Part shown: one piece after another, positions 1 through 38,557 of the stretch
Layout of the letters: every line of letters begins with the position of its first letter
Numbering within the stretch: position 1 is the stretch's first letter
Assembly (NCBI GenBank): GCA_947589025.1
Contig: CANQAY010000006.1
Location: forward strand, 2,755 to 66,754
Source of the DNA: an uncultured Clostridia bacterium
GTDB lineage: Bacteria; Bacillota; Clostridia; Christensenellales; UBA1242
Direction of reading: 5' to 3'
Length of the DNA: 64,000 bases
Notes under the pieces: generated by a model
The model's input: the letters and a program-made list of their open reading frames with translations, nothing else
The model's database searches: none
What the model was told of the DNA's origin: nothing
Made by a program: the position numbers and the translations under genes

Positions 1-24
1 ACAACAATTTGTTTTTGATAATTT

Positions 25-3377: not shown

Positions 3378-4442
3378 TTAAGGATTTAATTTTATAATTT
3401 CGCCGTTATCTAAAACTTTTAGCGATGAATCGGCAAACTTTTTATATTTTGAATTTTCATCCACAATTGAAAATATTGTTACATTGCCATGTTTTTTTGT
3501 GGCTTTGGCAAGGCTTAAAAGCATTTTGGCTTGTTGCACAAAATCGGCACTTTCGGTTAGGGTGGTTAAATCATCAATAACAACTGCCACATTTTTTTTG
3601 CTTTCAATTAGCCTTTTAATGCGCTCTATTGCCAAATTTAAAATTTGATTAACATATTCGGTTTTATCGGTAAGTTTGGCAACAAAGCAATCGGCATTCT
3701 TAAGTTGTTCTAAATAAATTAAATTTTTATCCAGCATGGCAATATTAATGTAAATTTTTGTGTTATTTGTGCAATTATTTAGCAAATTTATTGCGGTTTT
3801 AGAGTTTGTGTTGCTGTTGGCGCCATAAATATAAACATTTTCACCCATCAACAAATTTAGGTTTAAATTAGCAAATTCCAACTTTTTTTCGGGCAAAATT
3901 GAAGCAATTTTGTTAAAATCTGCCCTAGATTTTTCAAATTTATTAATTGGTGTGCCGTTTATGTTAAGCACTTTTTTAATAACAAGCTGCCTATCTTGCA
4001 TTTGAAGTTCGCAAATGGCATAATCCCCCGTTTTAATGGGCGAAATAAAGCAAACTTCACTAGGAATATAATAGCAAGTGTAGCCCGCATTTTTATATTG
4101 CCACAACACGGCAGAATTGCGATTTATAATTTCTACATAGCCATCAACAACATTAACCTCGCTGTTATTATCAAACACCATTGCGGGTTGGCTAAACACC
4201 AAATTTCTAAAATCGTCTATTGAATGTTTAGGTTGGCTATCCATAAATGCAATTTCGTTATTTTTAGGGGGCCTACCCTGCCTTTTTAAAGAAAAATTTG
4301 GTTGAGCAACGCCGTTTTTAATATCATTAATTTCACTAATGATTTGAGCTTTGGTTTTGCTGGTTGGAGATTTTACGCCAATTTTGCGTGCAAAATCTCG
4401 CAAAGCAAAAATGCTAAGTTCGTTTAAATCTTCATTTTCCAC
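3378..4442 (-). CDS. Rho-like protein with degenerate ATPase motifs
   Basis: GTG start with an AGGAGGT SD. By remembered alignment to E. coli Rho, the protein is collinear with the Rho N-terminal helix bundle, the CSD-like RNA-binding region and the RecA-like core. Walker A reads GANSNTNSKT instead of PPKAGKT, and the C-terminus is short (354 aa). Confidence 0.6.
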   Translation of the reverse strand: MENEDLNELSIFALRDFARKIGVKSPTSKTKAQIISEINDIKNGVAQPNFSLKRQGRPPKNNEIAFMDSQPKHSIDDFRNLVFSQPAMVFDNNSEVNVVDGYVEIINRNSAVLWQYKNAGYTCYYIPSEVCFISPIKTGDYAICELQMQDRQLVIKKVLNINGTPINKFEKSRADFNKIASILPEKKLEFANLNLNLLMGENVYIYGANSNTNSKTAINLLNNCTNNTKIYINIAMLDKNLIYLEQLKNADCFVAKLTDKTEYVNQILNLAIERIKRLIESKKNVAVVIDDLTTLTESADFVQQAKMLLSLAKATKKHGNVTIFSIVDENSKYKKFADSSLKVLDNGEIIKLNP

Positions 4443-4496: not shown

Positions 4497-4584
4497 GTTT
4501 TTTGTACAAATTTCGACCTTTTTTTAAAAAATTATAAAAAGCCCATAAAAAAATGAAAAAAACACCATTAAAATAGTGTTTGTT

Positions 4585-4932
4585 TTAGGCTGTTATGCCA
4601 AGGCTAACCATAATAGCTACGTCCACTTTTTTCATTGTGTTTTCGTCAATGGAACAGATTTTTTCTTTAAGCCTGCGCTTATCCAGTGTGCGTATTTGCT
4701 CCAAAAGCACAACGCTATCTTTCATTAAATTGAATTTATCTTTATTTAGTTCTATGTGGGTGGGCAATTTTGCCTTAGTCAGTTGGCTGGTTATGGCGGC
4801 AATAATTACGGTTGGGCTAAACTTGTTGCCCACATCATTTTGCACCACCAAAACTGGGCGCACACCGCCCTGCTCGCTGCCCACAACCGGGCTTAAATCT
4901 GCATAAAATATATCGCCACGAACAACTTCCAT
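4585..4932 (-). CDS. mazF: Type II toxin endoribonuclease MazF/NdoA (PemK family)
   Basis: 115 aa, nearly collinear with B. subtilis NdoA ([48 protein letters not shown]). Confidence 0.92.
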
Positions 4933-5123
4933 TATTCTCCTTTCAAGTAATGCAATGTAACTAGGAAATCATCAACCCCCTCATAGTCTTTTAAAATTTC
5001 GTTTATTGCCAAGTTGTATTCACTATCAGTATATGCCCGAGTGTCGAATTTTGGCATTTTGGGGCGAATAATTTTATCTATTTTTGCCAGATATTTTATA
5101 TACGCATTAACTTCTTCGTCCAT
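4932..5123 (-). CDS. Small protein translationally coupled to mazF; candidate non-canonical antitoxin
   Basis: 63-aa ORF whose TAA stop overlaps the mazF ATG (TAATG). It sits in the antitoxin position, but I see no RHH/MazE-like motif. Confidence 0.35.
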
Positions 5124-5146
5124 AATGTTCTCCCTTTATAAAGTTT

Positions 5147-5587
5147 TTAAACTTTGGCAAGCAATTTTTTAAGTTTTTCGTAAAATTCGTCCTGCATTTT
5201 CTTAAATTCGGCAACAAGCGCAACAAGTTCTTCGTTTTTAACTTTGCAATCTTTTTCCACTTTAATGGTGTCAATAATGCCCATAACCGTGCCGGAAATC
5301 ATCATTTCAACTATGTGGCGCGGGGTGGAATCCATCCAAAGTGACATATAAAGCATGGCGGTTTGTTTGGCCTTTTTAAAAAAACTGTTTTCTTTGACAT
5401 CAATCTCTCTATTAACTGCCAAAACATCGCACTTTTGGCTGAATTTTTCATACATGTCAAACTGCTTTTTAAATTGCTTTTTAAGGTCCTCGTTTTTAAG
5501 TTTTTTTAGCACCTTATCAATTGCAAGCATGCCGATAGTTGCATCCTGATAAACTCGGTTTAAAAGTTTTTCTTCGTTCTTTTCCAT
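5147..5587 (-). CDS. Hypothetical protein, predicted helical
   Basis: 146-aa ORF with a GGAGGA SD and ATG start. First gene of the putative three-gene unit that ends with mazF. No family recognised. Confidence 0.45.
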   Translation of the reverse strand: MEKNEEKLLNRVYQDATIGMLAIDKVLKKLKNEDLKKQFKKQFDMYEKFSQKCDVLAVNREIDVKENSFFKKAKQTAMLYMSLWMDSTPRHIVEMMISGTVMGIIDTIKVEKDCKVKNEELVALVAEFKKMQDEFYEKLKKLLAKV

Positions 5588-5663
5588 AGTTCCTCCGTTG
5601 TTAGTTTTAGTTAAAAAAAAATAATTATGCGTGCAATTAAGAATAAAAATTTTTAAAATTTTA

Positions 5664-5691
5664 TTGACAAATTATTTTTTTGTTATATAAT
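5664..5691 (+). promoter_or_regulatory. tyrS leader promoter
   Basis: TTGACA (5664-5669), 16-nt spacer, TATAAT (5686-5691). Confidence 0.65.
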
Positions 5692-5711
5692 AAATAATGT
5701 AAGGAGCAAAA

Positions 5712-5759
5712 ATGATAATTTTATTTGCAAACACTTCATATTATTACTACTACATCTAG
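5712..5759 (+). CDS. tyrS leader peptide MIILFANTSYYYYYI
   Basis: AAGGAG (5701-5706) lies 5 nt before the ATG. The 15 codons include five consecutive Tyr codons (TAT TAT TAC TAC TAC, 5739-5753) and end with a TAG stop at 5757-5759. Confidence 0.7.
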   Translation: MIILFANTSYYYYYI

Positions 5760-5761
5760 AC

Positions 5762-5822
5762 CGCTATATGTAGGAGTTTTGTTTGCAGCATAATAAATTT
5801 ATTAAACCTCTGCCATATAGCG
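5762..5822 (+). promoter_or_regulatory. Candidate antiterminator helix (segments A:B) of the tyrS attenuator
   Basis: CGCTATATG (5762-5770) pairs with CATATAGCG (5814-5822). The 3' arm overlaps the 5' arm of terminator 1. Confidence 0.6.
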
Positions 5823-5850
5823 AATTTGCTTGTGGCAGTTTTTATTTATT
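5810..5850 (+). terminator. tyrS attenuator terminator 1
   Basis: Stem 5810-5821 with 5828-5838 (11 bp, one bulge) is followed by TTTTTATTTATT. Confidence 0.7.
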
Positions 5851-5885
5851 CTGCCACATGTAACCCGCTTGTGGCAGATTTTTTG
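5851..5885 (+). terminator. tyrS attenuator terminator 2
   Basis: Stem CTGCCACA (5851-5858) with TGTGGCAG (5870-5877) is followed by ATTTTTTG. Its 5' arm can alternatively pair with the 3' arm of terminator 1 (5831-5838). Confidence 0.65.
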
Positions 5886-5900
5886 TTAAAAGGAGTTTGT

Positions 5901-5951
5901 ATGATATTATTTATAAAAACGTACGCCCTTATGGGCGTTAAAACAATTTGA
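5901..5951 (+). CDS. Second mini-ORF MILFIKTYALMGVKTI between the attenuator and tyrS
   Basis: AAAAGGAG (5888-5895) lies 5 nt before the ATG. The SD and N-terminus resemble the first leader ORF. A hairpin ACGCCC/GGGCGT (5923-5938) lies inside it. Confidence 0.4.
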   Translation: MILFIKTYALMGVKTI

Positions 5952-5991
5952 AAACTATACAAAAATATTTATAATTAAAAAGGAGAAAAAA

Positions 5992-7233
5992 ATGGAATTT
6001 AAAAATAATGCTTTTGAGCAGTTAGCAAAGCGTGGATTTGTTTTTCAAACCACACATTTAGAAGAAACTAAAAAGGCTTTAAAATCTGGGCCTATAACTT
6101 TTTACATTGGTATTGACCCGACAGCGGATGATTTGCATATTGGGCATTTCTTTGGTTTGCAAATGGCAAGAATTTTGCAAGATTGCGGGCACAGATGTAT
6201 TGTGCTTGTTGGTGGTGCAACTGCCCTTATTGGCGACCCAACTAATAAAACAGATATGAGGAAAATGCTTTCTAAAGAAGAGGTCGCAAGAAACGCCCGA
6301 GAAATTTCTAGCATAATTAAGCGTTTTGTGCGTGTAGATGGCGATAACCCTGCCATAGTTGTGGATAATGCCGATTGGCTTAAATCAATTAGTTACATTG
6401 ATTTTTTGCGTGATGTTGGCGTGCATTTTAATGTAAATGAAATGTTGGCAAAAGATTTATACAAAAATAGGCTAATGAAAGGCGGCTTAACTTTTATGGA
6501 AATGGGATACATGCTTATGCAGTCGTTTGATTTTGTGCATTTAAATGATAAATTTGGTTGCATCCTTCAAATTGGCGGCTCGGACCAATGGGGAAATATC
6601 TGCGGAGGCGTTGAACTTTCACGCAAAATGAATTTTAAGGACGGCGCGCCAAGACCTCTTATGATGGGGTTAACCTGCCCGCTTTTAACAAATGCAGATG
6701 GCATTAAAATGGGCAAAACAGAAAAAGGCACACTTTGGGTGTCCCGAGAAAAAACTTCCGCTTTTGAATTTTTTCAACATTTTGTAAACTGCTTGGATGC
6801 GGATGTTGAAAGATTGTTAAAATTTTTTACCAAATTAGATGTTGATGAAATTAAAAAGATGTGCCGGGAAGATATTGTAAAAGCAAAAAAACGCATGGCT
6901 TTTGAAGTAACAAAACTTGTGCACGGTGAAGAAGAAGCATTAAAAGCACAAGAAGCCGCCATTAAACTTTTTGAAAATAAGGATTTAGAAAATGAAAATA
7001 TGCCAATAGAAGAAATTAAAGTTGACGATAAAATTAACATAGTTGAATTTTTATCAAAACTATCCATAATAAAATCAAAAAGTGAAGCCCGCCGTTTAAT
7101 TGAACAAGGCGGAATTAGCATTAACAACAAAAAAGTGCAAAACGAAAATGAAATTGTTAATATAAAAAATCAAAATTCACTAATCGTCAAAAAAGGTAAA
7201 AAATGTTTTGTAAGGGTTATTATAAAAAAATAA
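5992..7233 (+). CDS. tyrS: Tyrosine--tRNA ligase
   Basis: 413 aa with a HIGH-type motif (DLHIGHF), a KMSKS-type motif (KMGKT) and a C-terminal S4-like domain. AGGAG SD. Confidence 0.96.
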   Translation: MEFKNNAFEQLAKRGFVFQTTHLEETKKALKSGPITFYIGIDPTADDLHIGHFFGLQMARILQDCGHRCIVLVGGATALIGDPTNKTDMRKMLSKEEVARNAREISSIIKRFVRVDGDNPAIVVDNADWLKSISYIDFLRDVGVHFNVNEMLAKDLYKNRLMKGGLTFMEMGYMLMQSFDFVHLNDKFGCILQIGGSDQWGNICGGVELSRKMNFKDGAPRPLMMGLTCPLLTNADGIKMGKTEKGTLWVSREKTSAFEFFQHFVNCLDADVERLLKFFTKLDVDEIKKMCREDIVKAKKRMAFEVTKLVHGEEEALKAQEAAIKLFENKDLENENMPIEEIKVDDKINIVEFLSKLSIIKSKSEARRLIEQGGISINNKKVQNENEIVNIKNQNSLIVKKGKKCFVRVIIKK

Positions 7234-7254
7234 GCACAACTGTGCTTATTTTTT
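7232..7254. terminator. Bidirectional terminator between tyrS and the convergent permease gene
   Basis: Stem AAGCAC/GTGCTT with an AACT loop, flanked by an A-run and a T-run. Confidence 0.6.
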
Positions 7255-8233
7255 AAATAAAGTTTAATGCGTAGCCCAATATTAAACTTGGAATTATTAG
7301 CATGGATATTATAAATATATTTTCTTTAACATTTTTGTTTTGTTTAAGCAATATTATAAGCCCCAGCCCTGCGTTTACGCAAAGGCCGGCACACAGTGCG
7401 CCAAACGACAGCCCGCCAACTAAAAACAATTCGGTTAATGCAACGCTTGATGCGCAATTTGGGATTAAGCCTATTAAAATTGCCAAAAGCGGCTGAATAT
7501 ATATGCTATTTTTTAAAAATGTTTGCAGGGCAGCTTCACCAATCCAAACTTCGGTAATTAAGCCAAATAACACGTTAACTATCAATATAAAGGCAGAAAT
7601 TTTTAAGCAATGCAGCAGTGGGTGTAACCAATCAAACGATTTTGTTTTAACATGGTGGTGGCAGCAGCCATCCATAATTTCTTGTTCAACTTCGTGCTCG
7701 TGGTCATGCTCATCAACATCATTTTTTGTTAAATTTTTATTGCTATTTGTTAATTTTGAAGCGTTTTTTTCATCATTTTTGGTTAAATTTTCTTTATTTT
7801 TTAAATTTTGTTTGTCATTTTTATTTTTAAAAATTAATTTGTAAAGCCAAATGGATAGATAGCCCACGCTTATGCCAATTGCAATTTTTACGCCAATTAA
7901 AGCAAACAGCCAAGGAATGCTTTTAGGGTTGGAAAACATTAACGGCAAGGCTTCGTCACTAGTGGCAAGGTAAACCGCTATTAGCGCGCCAATTGATATT
8001 GCTTTTTTGGTGTAAAGGTCGGTAGACACAACTGAAAACCCGCATTGAGGTATGCAGCCAACAACCGCGCCAACAACCGGGCTGGCTTTGCCCTTTAGCC
8101 ATTTGTTGTTTTGCAGCTTTACAGCAAATTTAAATTCAATTAATTCAATTAAATAATAAACAACAAAAAGAATGGGCAAAATTTTTGCCGTATCTATAAG
8201 CGCATGAAATAAAACATCCCAAACTTGTTGCAT
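7253..8233 (-). CDS. Putative 10-TM metal transporter (ArsP_2/DUF2899-like permease)
   Basis: 326-aa polytopic membrane protein with paired motifs GCIPQCGFSVV and IPNCASSVALTELF and a central His/Cys-rich loop (DEHDHEHEVEQEIMDGCCHHH). Family assignment is from memory. Confidence 0.55.
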   Translation of the reverse strand: MQQVWDVLFHALIDTAKILPILFVVYYLIELIEFKFAVKLQNNKWLKGKASPVVGAVVGCIPQCGFSVVSTDLYTKKAISIGALIAVYLATSDEALPLMFSNPKSIPWLFALIGVKIAIGISVGYLSIWLYKLIFKNKNDKQNLKNKENLTKNDEKNASKLTNSNKNLTKNDVDEHDHEHEVEQEIMDGCCHHHVKTKSFDWLHPLLHCLKISAFILIVNVLFGLITEVWIGEAALQTFLKNSIYIQPLLAILIGLIPNCASSVALTELFLVGGLSFGALCAGLCVNAGLGLIILLKQNKNVKENIFIISMLIIPSLILGYALNFI

Positions 8234-9495: not shown

Positions 9496-9861
9496 TTAAA
9501 CTATGTCTGCCAAAATATAATTTTTAATTAAATAAATAAATTCGTTGCAAGTTGGCTTGCCCTCGCCCGAATAAAAATAGGCTAATTTATCTTTTAATTT
9601 TCTATCCCAAAGGGTGGCAATTAAATTTCTAATGTCTCGTTCAATAGAGCAATCATGTTTGCCATATTTTGAGGCAAGGCCAGGATAAACCTCTCGCGAA
9701 AAAGATTTAATAATCCGTTGTTTATTTATAATTTCATCTAAAATATCTAATAAAAAATAATAGGCCGTATATTTTTTTGTTATACCCAAATCGGTTATTT
9801 TTTTAGTTAAAAAATAATTTTTGGTTACAATTTTGGTATATTCCTCTTCATATTTGTACAT
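9496..9861 (-). CDS. Stand-alone Spo0A C-terminal (DNA-binding) domain-like protein
   Basis: The segment TKKYTAYYFLLDIL...REVYPGLASKYGKHDCSIERDIRNLI resembles the Spo0A_C effector domain. There is no receiver domain. Start taken at MYKYEEE (9861), which has an AAGGGG SD. Confidence 0.55.
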   Translation of the reverse strand: MYKYEEEYTKIVTKNYFLTKKITDLGITKKYTAYYFLLDILDEIINKQRIIKSFSREVYPGLASKYGKHDCSIERDIRNLIATLWDRKLKDKLAYFYSGEGKPTCNEFIYLIKNYILADIV

Positions 9862-9913
9862 TTTTTGCCCCTTACATAACAAAAATAGCACAAATTTTAA
9901 TCAAAGTCAATAC

Positions 9914-38200: not shown

Positions 38201-38557
38201 GGGGATGAATTAGTTTCGACTATCAAATTATTTGTTTATACGCATGCCGAGCGACATCTCGTTAAACATGTGTTCGTTTGCTCGAACTTAAATAAACGCT
38301 AAAAACGAAAATAAACTTGCTTACGCTGCCTAGTTGCACGTAGCCGTCGGTTTAATGGTACCGATACATTAAAATCTGGCGTCGATTATCGGTTAACGCC
38401 AACATTTATTGCCTAGTGAATGTTGGTGTAAACATAGGCTAGCCAAATTAAAGTGTTAATGTTAGTTTAGTTTGGCGAAAATAGTCATTAACTAAGCATG
38501 TAGTGTATGGGCAATTACTTTGGTAGGACAGGGGTGCAACTCCCCTCATCTCCACCA
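38201..38557 (+). ncRNA. ssrA: Transfer-messenger RNA (tmRNA)
   Basis: The 5' end GGGGAUG pairs with the 3' CAUCUCC-ACCA, including a G3:U pair. A T-arm is present (GGGG-UGCAACU-CCCC). The tag reading frame GCT AAA AAC GAA AAT AAA CTT GCT TAC GCT GCC TAG (38298-38333) encodes AKNENKLAYAA. Confidence 0.9.

Follow-up and report, generated by a model that had tools for sequence, protein, structure and literature searches.

A putative tyrosine-responsive transcription attenuator upstream of tyrS in uncultured gut Clostridia

In Bacillus subtilis the gene for tyrosyl-tRNA synthetase, tyrS, is controlled by a T-box, and this gene is often under T-box control in the Bacillota. Leader peptides have been described ahead of several other synthetase genes. 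The pheST operon is the gamma-proteobacterial example (PMC1262725), and attenuators have been predicted by comparative genomics for trpS and leuS of Streptomyces (Seliverstov et al. 2005, PMC1262725). The same 2005 paper states that no synthetase gene of the Firmicutes was known to use classical attenuation (PMC1262725). A His leader peptide has since been reported from the Bacillus cereus group, where it precedes a hisS paralogue and hisZ (Naville & Gautheret 2010, PMC2965389), along with leaders of the his operon in three lineages, including Peptostreptococcaceae and Erysipelotrichales (PMC9413887), and an ilv leader peptide in S. aureus (PMC5794164). The element described here lies upstream of tyrS in a stretch of 64,000 nucleotides (nt), referred to as the window, from an uncultured Clostridia bacterium (Christensenellales; UBA1242; assembly GCA_947589025.1, contig CANQAY010000006.1, positions 2,755-66,754 of the forward strand). 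It consists of a promoter (P1), a short open reading frame (ORF1) containing a run of Tyr codons, and a series of segments (A to E) predicted to pair in alternative ways: A with B (antiterminator 1), B with C (terminator 1, T1), C with D (antiterminator 2) and D with E (terminator 2, T2). Taken together, the sequence and the modelled folds make it very probable that this is a ribosome-mediated attenuator of tyrS transcription that responds to Tyr-tRNA. No description of a Tyr-codon leader peptide or a tyrS attenuator was found in full-text literature searches, and no Rfam 15 family matches the element.

The element follows the same logic as the attenuators of trp, his, pheA and pheST. As in E. 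coli pheST (pheM), a synthetase gene is preceded by a short leader ORF with a run of cognate codons and by alternative antiterminator and terminator hairpins. However, the pheST leader carries Phe codons and belongs to a proteobacterium, and the tyrS leader resembles it neither in sequence nor by covariance model, no Rfam leader family matching even at E<=10. The pheST attenuator of E. coli has a single terminator. The element shares with E. coli trp and with his of Salmonella and E. coli a 1:2 hairpin over the regulatory codons followed by a U-run (pause), a 2:3 antiterminator and a 3:4 terminator. The alternative hairpins of the his attenuator also form a chain, but the chain of the tyrS leader crosses two complete terminators (B:C and D:E) joined by C:D, and an extra helix links the 5' half of the ORF to the region past segment A. 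The Streptomyces trpS and leuS attenuators are likewise classical leader-peptide devices before synthetase genes in Gram-positives, although they occur in GC-rich Actinobacteria and use Trp or Leu codons. Like the present element, the His leaders of the Firmicutes are leader-peptide attenuators standing where T-boxes are usual. They differ in carrying His codons and in serving a HisRS paralogue or biosynthesis genes rather than a housekeeping tyrS, and neither tandem chained terminators nor a second mini-ORF has been described for them. The tyrS T-box of the B. subtilis type (RF00230) acts on the same gene, on the same signal (tRNA-Tyr charging) and by antitermination in the 5' leader. There the sensor is uncharged tRNA on RNA, whereas in the Clostridia leader it would be the ribosome. 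The two chain-linked terminators, the 5' helix, the second mini-ORF and a proximal promoter-like site are unusual.

The gene that follows the leader, ORF 5992-7233, is tyrS, as it matches the TIGR00234 equivalog model (403.9 bits against a cutoff of 113.8) and its product carries the Pfam domains tRNA-synt_1b, SYY_C-terminal and S4. Domain scans of about half of the larger ORFs found no other synthetase gene in the window. The upstream neighbour in the ORF list (5147-5587) is divergent to the leader, and transcription therefore does not enter the leader from that side. P1 matches the promoter consensus at 12 of 12 positions, and is both the sole such match and the best promoter-like site in 4500-7500. 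Its transcript would start at approximately 5697-5699, ~14 nt before the ATG of ORF1. With its own Shine-Dalgarno (SD) sequence and start codon directly 3' of the promoter, ORF1 has the appearance of the short ORF of a classical attenuator. Its five Tyr codons (TAT TAT TAC TAC TAC, 5739-5753) lie one codon before the stop. This pattern of five TAY codons, TAYTAYTAYTAYTAY, has a single match in the 64 kb window, none of 100 shuffles contains it, and ORF1 is the sole intergenic example recovered when the window was searched for homo-codon runs with an SD. A Tyr run near the 3' end of a leader, with tyrS as the putative regulated gene, is what would be expected of the regulatory codons of a classical attenuator. 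An earlier note on this DNA, which had proposed attenuation here, gave the positions of the promoter, the AAGGAG, the 15-codon ORF and its five Tyr codons; direct reading of the sequence bears out all of them.

Related loci were gathered by a protein scan with the synthetase (TyrRS), keeping one genome per species. It gave 45 loci, all of them from uncultured Clostridia of the gut that carry the labels Christensenellales, Ca. Onthoplasma, Ca. Caccovivens and Ca. Caccosoma. With TyrRS identities of 65-87%, 39 of these are close relatives, and in 35 of the 39 the upstream sequence is long enough for evaluation. The leader ORF is present upstream of tyrS in 33 of the 35. Its peptide usually reads M-K-N-L-F-A-x-x-S-YYYYY-I/K-stop, and variants of the codon run include YYYCY, YYGYY, YYCYY, YHYYY and YYWWTY. 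The order of the parts is constant: promoter, SD, ORF, GCTATATGTAG (A), CTGyCATATAGC (B), TGTGGCAG with a T-run (C), CTGCCAC (D) and TGGCAG followed by A and T6 (E). Promoters, SD sequences and spacings were counted in 33 sequences (the window and 32 relatives). A P1-type site (TTGnnn-16..18-TAnnnT, 17-25 nt 5' of the leader ATG) occurs in 31 of them and an SD-like motif ahead of the leader ORF in all 33, while segment A begins 2-4 nt past the stop codon in 30. Metagenome contigs were scanned with an exact pattern, which gave five more copies and a total of 50 loci; tyrS lies downstream in all four of the copies that extend far enough. The genes flanking the element in the window have no tblastn match in the 50 loci, and the tRNA genes nearby are not the same from locus to locus, so the element travels with tyrS alone. 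In the six distant TyrRS loci (47-55% identity) the leader is absent, and so is a T-box. The earlier note would have abandoned its claim had related genomes lacked the Tyr run and the alternative helices; both are present in the 33 relatives, always before tyrS.

Several relatives depart from the common arrangement. At L031:2164-2211 the leader reads MTTILTSNLYYWWTY, in which Tyr and Trp codons are mixed, and the T2 stem differs; what follows is nevertheless a gene for a TyrRS homologue. At L006:2280-2500 and L034:1817-2036 an extra ORF of ~75 aa (MKKNVEITL...) lies between the promoter-like site and tyrS, and the leader at these loci thus heads a two-gene unit. One-terminator versions of the attenuator occur at L016:1343-1550 and L049:7940-8170. 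These suggest that the double terminator arose by duplication, and they point to the second terminator as an elaboration of a core unit that corresponds to the classical 1:2/2:3/3:4 device.

The leader (5698-5995) folds far more stably than shuffled sequences (z -5.65). Helices A:B, B:C, C:D and D:E, as well as both U-tracts, were recovered by folding where they had been proposed (Table 1), and a repeat search independently found the same inverted-repeat arms. The T1 stem pairs 5810-5817 with 5831-5838 and 5819-5822 with 5827-5830. In the models, T1 and T2 each consist of a hairpin and U-tract located past the leader ORF and ahead of the structural gene, as expected of attenuator terminators. 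Neither is listed by a simple terminator scan, because this permits loops of 3-8 nt only. Two helices are additions to the earlier inventory. The first, the 1:2 hairpin, overlaps segment A and is followed by a conserved UUUU; its arms are also listed by the repeat search. It is probably an anti-antiterminator and pause hairpin, by analogy with the 1:2 pause/protector hairpin of trp. The five segments originally described all stand, but five is too low a count, since the Tyr codons themselves pair with A and the device has at least six. The second helix, P0, is part of the minimum free energy (MFE) structure in the window and is retained as a duplex in relatives (mean -12.4 kcal/mol, mean z -3.7). 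Its partner sequences vary by species (TTTGCA/TGCAAA, TTTCGCA/TGCGA.AAA and TTTACACT/AGTGTAAA). The conserved N-terminus of the ORF1 peptide can be traced to P0, which pairs the first half of the ORF at the RNA level.

Maintenance of the helices was measured in an alignment of 32 sequences, with slid arms as controls. For the 1:2 helix 92.7% of cells are paired, compared to 12-50% in its slid controls, and two pairs have changed on both sides. The corresponding values are 87.2% and four pairs for A:B, 94.9% and two pairs for T1, 91.3% and five pairs for C:D, and 90.3% and six pairs for T2, with 0 of 500 shuffles reaching any observed measure. Across the five helices the slid controls are 12-64% paired. 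A compensatory change in A:B is seen in L024 and L043, where GCTGTATG in A accompanies CATACAGC in B.

The influence of a translating ribosome was modelled by blocking a footprint of 29 nt during folding. When the window RNA extends up to the U-tract of T1, a ribosome with its A site on any of Tyr codons 1-4 leaves A:B formed and T1 absent, whereas T1 forms with no ribosome, with a ribosome on the fifth Tyr codon or with one at the stop. Decision-point folds used RNA ending after segment B in the 32 aligned sequences. In these, A:B is the MFE structure in 32 of 32 with a stalled ribosome and in 0 of 32 with a ribosome at the stop. The stall/stop logic proposed for T1 is thereby reproduced in the window and in the 32 sequences. 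A:B shares 5814-5822 with T1, and in the models a ribosome at the stop covers A whereas a stalled one leaves it free, which is the behaviour anticipated of an antiterminator. The antiterminator and terminator differ little in stability (mean -16.5 vs -16.0 kcal/mol). The switch would therefore be kinetic and set by the order of synthesis, as in trp. The analysis thus shows the parts in the sequence, that they are conserved, that the helices are maintained and, in folding calculations, a switch that depends on ribosome position.

A course of events can be proposed in which the P1 transcript is tuned to the supply of charged tRNA-Tyr. A ribosome would load at once and read towards the five Tyr codons. 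With Tyr-tRNA plentiful, it would reach the stop codon and cover segment A, allowing B to pair with C, and transcripts leaking past T1 would then meet D:E. With Tyr-tRNA scarce, a ribosome stalled on Tyr codons 1-4 would occupy the Tyr-codon strand of 1:2 and leave A free. A would pair with B before C is made, so that T1 could not form. The free C would in turn capture the emerging D, delaying or preventing D:E, and the polymerase would continue into tyrS. Were the leader not translated at all, the Tyr codons and the first half of the ORF would pair around A (1:2 and P0), favouring termination. The scheme presupposes that ORF1 is translated, that ribosomes may stall at its Tyr codons, that transcription would terminate at T1 and T2, and that the whole would respond to tyrosine.

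Several points weigh against this model. All of the functional claims are drawn from sequence and folding. With the full T1 sequence and a stalled ribosome, A:B is the MFE structure in only 13 of 32 sequences, and the model therefore needs kinetic trapping; a version based on equilibrium alone was rejected for this reason in favour of the co-transcriptional test with RNA ending after B. Without a ribosome A:B is the MFE structure in 18 of 32 and 1:2 in 12 of 32, so that termination by default is not thermodynamically guaranteed. The default-off state is instead supported kinetically, because 1:2 is made first. The covariation rests on few events, as the sequences are close (TyrRS 72-87% identical) and the arms highly conserved, and the structure tested came from a member of the alignment, giving it an advantage over the slid controls. 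At T2, for RNA through segment E and a stalled ribosome, A:B with C:D (E free) has -41.6 kcal/mol, A:B with D:E -41.8 and B:E with C:D -42.9. These three states fall within 1.3 kcal/mol, and T2 may consequently terminate in both conditions; B:E pairing would also set a paired E beside the U-tract. The proposal that a stall disables both terminators thus holds in the masked folds for T1 and is at most plausible for T2. Lastly, a conserved promoter-like site close to tyrS (P2) could free much of tyrS expression from the attenuator.

Table 1. Features of the tyrS leader region (positions are those of the window; helices and terminators as predicted)
Feature	Position	Strand	Details
Promoter P1	5664-5691	+	TTGACA 5664-5669, 16-nt spacer, TATAAT 5686-5691
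Leader SD (AAGGAG)	5701-5706	+	5 nt 5' of ORF1 ATG
Leader ORF1	5712-5759	+	MIILFANTSYYYYYI, then stop; 15 codons, ATG 5712, TAG 5757-5759
Helix P0	5713-5804	+	ORF1 codons 1-8 (5713-5733) with 5780-5804, enclosing 1:2 hairpin; MFE
Hairpin 1:2	5746-5777	+	last Tyr codons and stop (5746-5759) with 5764-5777, then UUUUGUUU; -9.1 kcal/mol
Antiterminator 1 (A:B)	5762-5822	+	5762-5770 with 5814-5822, GGAG 5773-5776 with 5808-5811; -17.4 kcal/mol
Terminator 1 (B:C)	5810-5849	+	hairpin 5810-5838, then U-tract TTTTTATTTATT; -15.0 kcal/mol, z -4.2
Antiterminator 2 (C:D)	5826-5863	+	5831-5838 with 5851-5858, extended by 5826-5829 with 5860-5863
Terminator 2 (D:E)	5850-5884	+	5850-5858 with 5870-5878, then TTTTTTG; -16.3 kcal/mol, z -5.5
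ORF2 (second mini-ORF)	5890-5951	+	MILFIKTYALMGVKTI, then stop; SD AAGGAG 5890-5895, ATG 5901, TGA 5949-5951
GC hairpin	5923-5938	+	ACGCCC-TTAT-GGGCGT, begins inside ORF2 Tyr codon; no U-tract after; -11.1 kcal/mol
Promoter-like site P2	5948-5975	+	TTGAAA 5948-5953, 16-nt spacer, TATAAT 5970-5975; 11/12
tyrS	5980-7233	+	SD AAGGAG 5980-5985, ATG 5992, stop at 7233, 413 aa

Equilibrium folding cannot choose among the near-isoenergetic states at T2 and was discarded as an arbiter there. Relief of T2 through C:D is plausible only kinetically, if C captures D before E has been made. The same near-equality of the competing states fits an alternative in which T1 alone is regulated by the ribosome, while T2 is a duplicated, constitutive back-up that would cut readthrough by a fixed factor. 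The repeat search shows B and D (90%) and C and E (94%) to be direct repeats. Complementarity of C to D would be automatic after such a duplication, making C:D a by-product, and the one-terminator versions at L016 and L049 are also in keeping with this explanation. However, two independent hairpins could drift apart, and instead the arms change together. In L017 all four arms (B, C, D and E) carry CTACCA/TGGTAG, and in L019 CCGyCA/TGGCGG is shared by B, C and D. Moreover, in L031, L032 and L035 the sequence of the T2 stem differs, yet its 5' arm (D) still complements C. The best argument for cross-pairing between C and D is therefore an evolutionary one, namely the joint change of the arms and the persistent match of D to C. 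On this evidence we lean slightly towards T2 being co-regulated through C:D, and regard a purely constitutive T2 as possible but rather doubtful.

The transcript containing ORF1 could also be an independent small gene, encoding a small RNA or a Tyr-rich micro-peptide that acts in trans and lying next to tyrS by chance. The unit has a strong promoter, an SD and terminators of its own, the N-terminus of the peptide (MKNLFA) is conserved, and in Sinorhizobium trans functions have been described for RNAs derived from attenuators and for leader peptides (PMC6614838, PMC7298713). However, the unit is always immediately 5' of tyrS and on the same strand even though the flanks vary, the amino acid of the codon run is the cognate of the downstream gene, and the antiterminator alternatives are conserved and placed 2-4 nt past the stop codon. 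The N-terminal conservation is accounted for by the co-varying helix P0. A role in trans could add to control in cis and would not replace it, and as a full explanation an independent gene seems very unlikely.

Searches for known RNA families returned no T-box. At the gathering score the Rfam T-box model has no match in the window, nor in the 50 loci, and in 5400-6200 there is none even at E<=10. The statement of the earlier note that no T-box is present therefore agrees with the model searches. T-box (RF00230) identity was rejected on this ground and because the leader (~190 nt) has neither Stem I nor the T-box sequence. A cmscan of 5400-6200 at E<=10 gave no match to the curated Rfam leader-peptide families (Trp, His, Phe, Thr, Leu etc.), and returned only chance-level small nucleolar RNA, microRNA and small RNA matches far below their gathering scores. 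The only RNA-family matches in the window and loci are to transfer-messenger RNA (tmRNA), tRNAs, one S-adenosylmethionine (SAM) riboswitch and one antisense RNA, lying elsewhere. TRAP-type attenuation requires ~9-11 (G/U)AG triplets with 2-3 nt spacers and an RNA-binding protein (PMC3064811). It was rejected, as the leader has no more than five UAY triplets, which adjoin one another in the reading frame of a conserved and translatable ORF. It is accordingly highly improbable that the sensor is a TRAP-like protein or uncharged tRNA-Tyr binding the UAY repeats or the leader, or that a cryptic or degenerate T-box-like element operates here: many Bacillota do control tyrS by T-box (a general statement, PMC1262725) and UAY triplet repeats could in principle serve as a binding motif, but in addition to the negative T-box searches the triplets form one uninterrupted in-frame run within an ORF with conserved SD, start and stop, and a stop-to-A spacing fixed at 2-4 nt matters only for a ribosome sensor.

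The region between T2 and tyrS contains three features beyond those in the earlier inventory: a second mini-ORF (ORF2), a GC-rich hairpin and P2. The SD and ATG of ORF2 are kept in 33 of 35 sequences. Its sole invariant codons are Tyr-Ala (TAYGCCC), and these form the 5' arm of the GC hairpin. The start of ORF2 resembles that of ORF1 (75% over 20 nt in the repeat search). Folding of individual sequences places the GC hairpin in 34 of 35, with loops of 3-8 nt, varying stem extensions and a mean z of -3.7. The one-terminator locus L016 has neither ORF2 nor this hairpin. RNAalifold returned no structure for the T2-to-tyrS alignment, because the variant hairpins are out of register. A protein operator was considered for the palindrome at 5923-5938 and rejected, since the loop length and stem extensions vary; this variation therefore marks it as an RNA element. 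The simple terminator scan flags the hairpin on the minus strand only, and a minus-strand terminator was also rejected, as it faces no gene transcribed in its direction and its flanks are not the same in different genomes.

P2 sits ~10 nt 3' of the GC hairpin and 4 nt before the SD of tyrS. Its -10-like TAnAAT is nearly invariant in the 35 sequences and is mostly preceded by TGn. In L030 the attenuator has been lost while the hairpin and P2 are retained, which fits a real proximal promoter. P2 may thus supply a basal tyrS transcript that bypasses the attenuator. However, a transcript from P2 would start on the SD of tyrS, so that P2 is only a candidate promoter. The earlier note had held that transcripts starting downstream of 5885 would count against attenuation; a start at P2, which lies downstream of this position, complements rather than refutes the attenuator model.

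The possible roles of ORF2 and its hairpin include protection of the mRNA dependent on a stalled ribosome, stabilisation of the 5' end after processing, and loading of a ribosome behind the polymerase. The most elaborate reading of the locus, which we offer tentatively and consider somewhat unlikely in its entirety, is a two-tier device. A single stall would be relayed through 1:2, A:B, B:C, C:D and D:E to switch both terminators. Transcripts that escape would then meet a checkpoint formed by the ORF2 Tyr codon and hairpin, at which, for example, a stall might protect or stabilise the tyrS mRNA, or the loading of ribosomes might keep the polymerase coupled. The proximal promoter would supply a basal level of the essential enzyme.

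Other features were noted elsewhere in the window. On the minus strand, 4585-4932 encodes a toxin of the PemK/MazF family (E 2.9e-36), and a 63-aa ORF (4932-5123, minus) overlaps the start of the toxin gene. This ORF has no family match. From its arrangement the pair at 4585-5123 looks like a type II toxin-antitoxin system. A 354-aa protein encoded at 3378-4442 (minus) shows weak, partial similarity to Rho (41 bits vs a cutoff of 509) with no Pfam match, and may be a degenerate or divergent Rho-like protein. A 131-aa protein at 9496-9891 (minus) contains only the C-terminal DNA-binding domain of Spo0A (E 2.6e-19), with no receiver domain. Its ORF adjoins others whose products resemble spore-maturation (SpmA/B-like) membrane proteins, one of which matches the Pfam nucleoside-recognition Gate domain. 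The tmRNA gene lies at 38201-38557 (plus; 152 bits; tag peptide AKNENKLAYAA) and is the only RNA family match in the window.

The two conserved mini-ORFs of the tyrS leader are omitted by gene callers in these metagenome-assembled genomes. At ~190 nt, AT-rich and highly conserved, the element is a compact system in which to ask if one stall relays through two terminators, and it could serve as a sensor of tRNA-Tyr charging. For synthetase-related leaders of the Firmicutes, work after 2005 added only His leaders (PMC2965389, PMC9413887), and with the present element Tyr would join the few amino acids that leader peptides are known to sense. A textbook mechanism would thereby be extended to a new amino acid, gene and lineage, with nothing overturned. 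In this lineage of uncultured gut Clostridia, tyrS appears to use a leader peptide of the proteobacterial style, and not a T-box.

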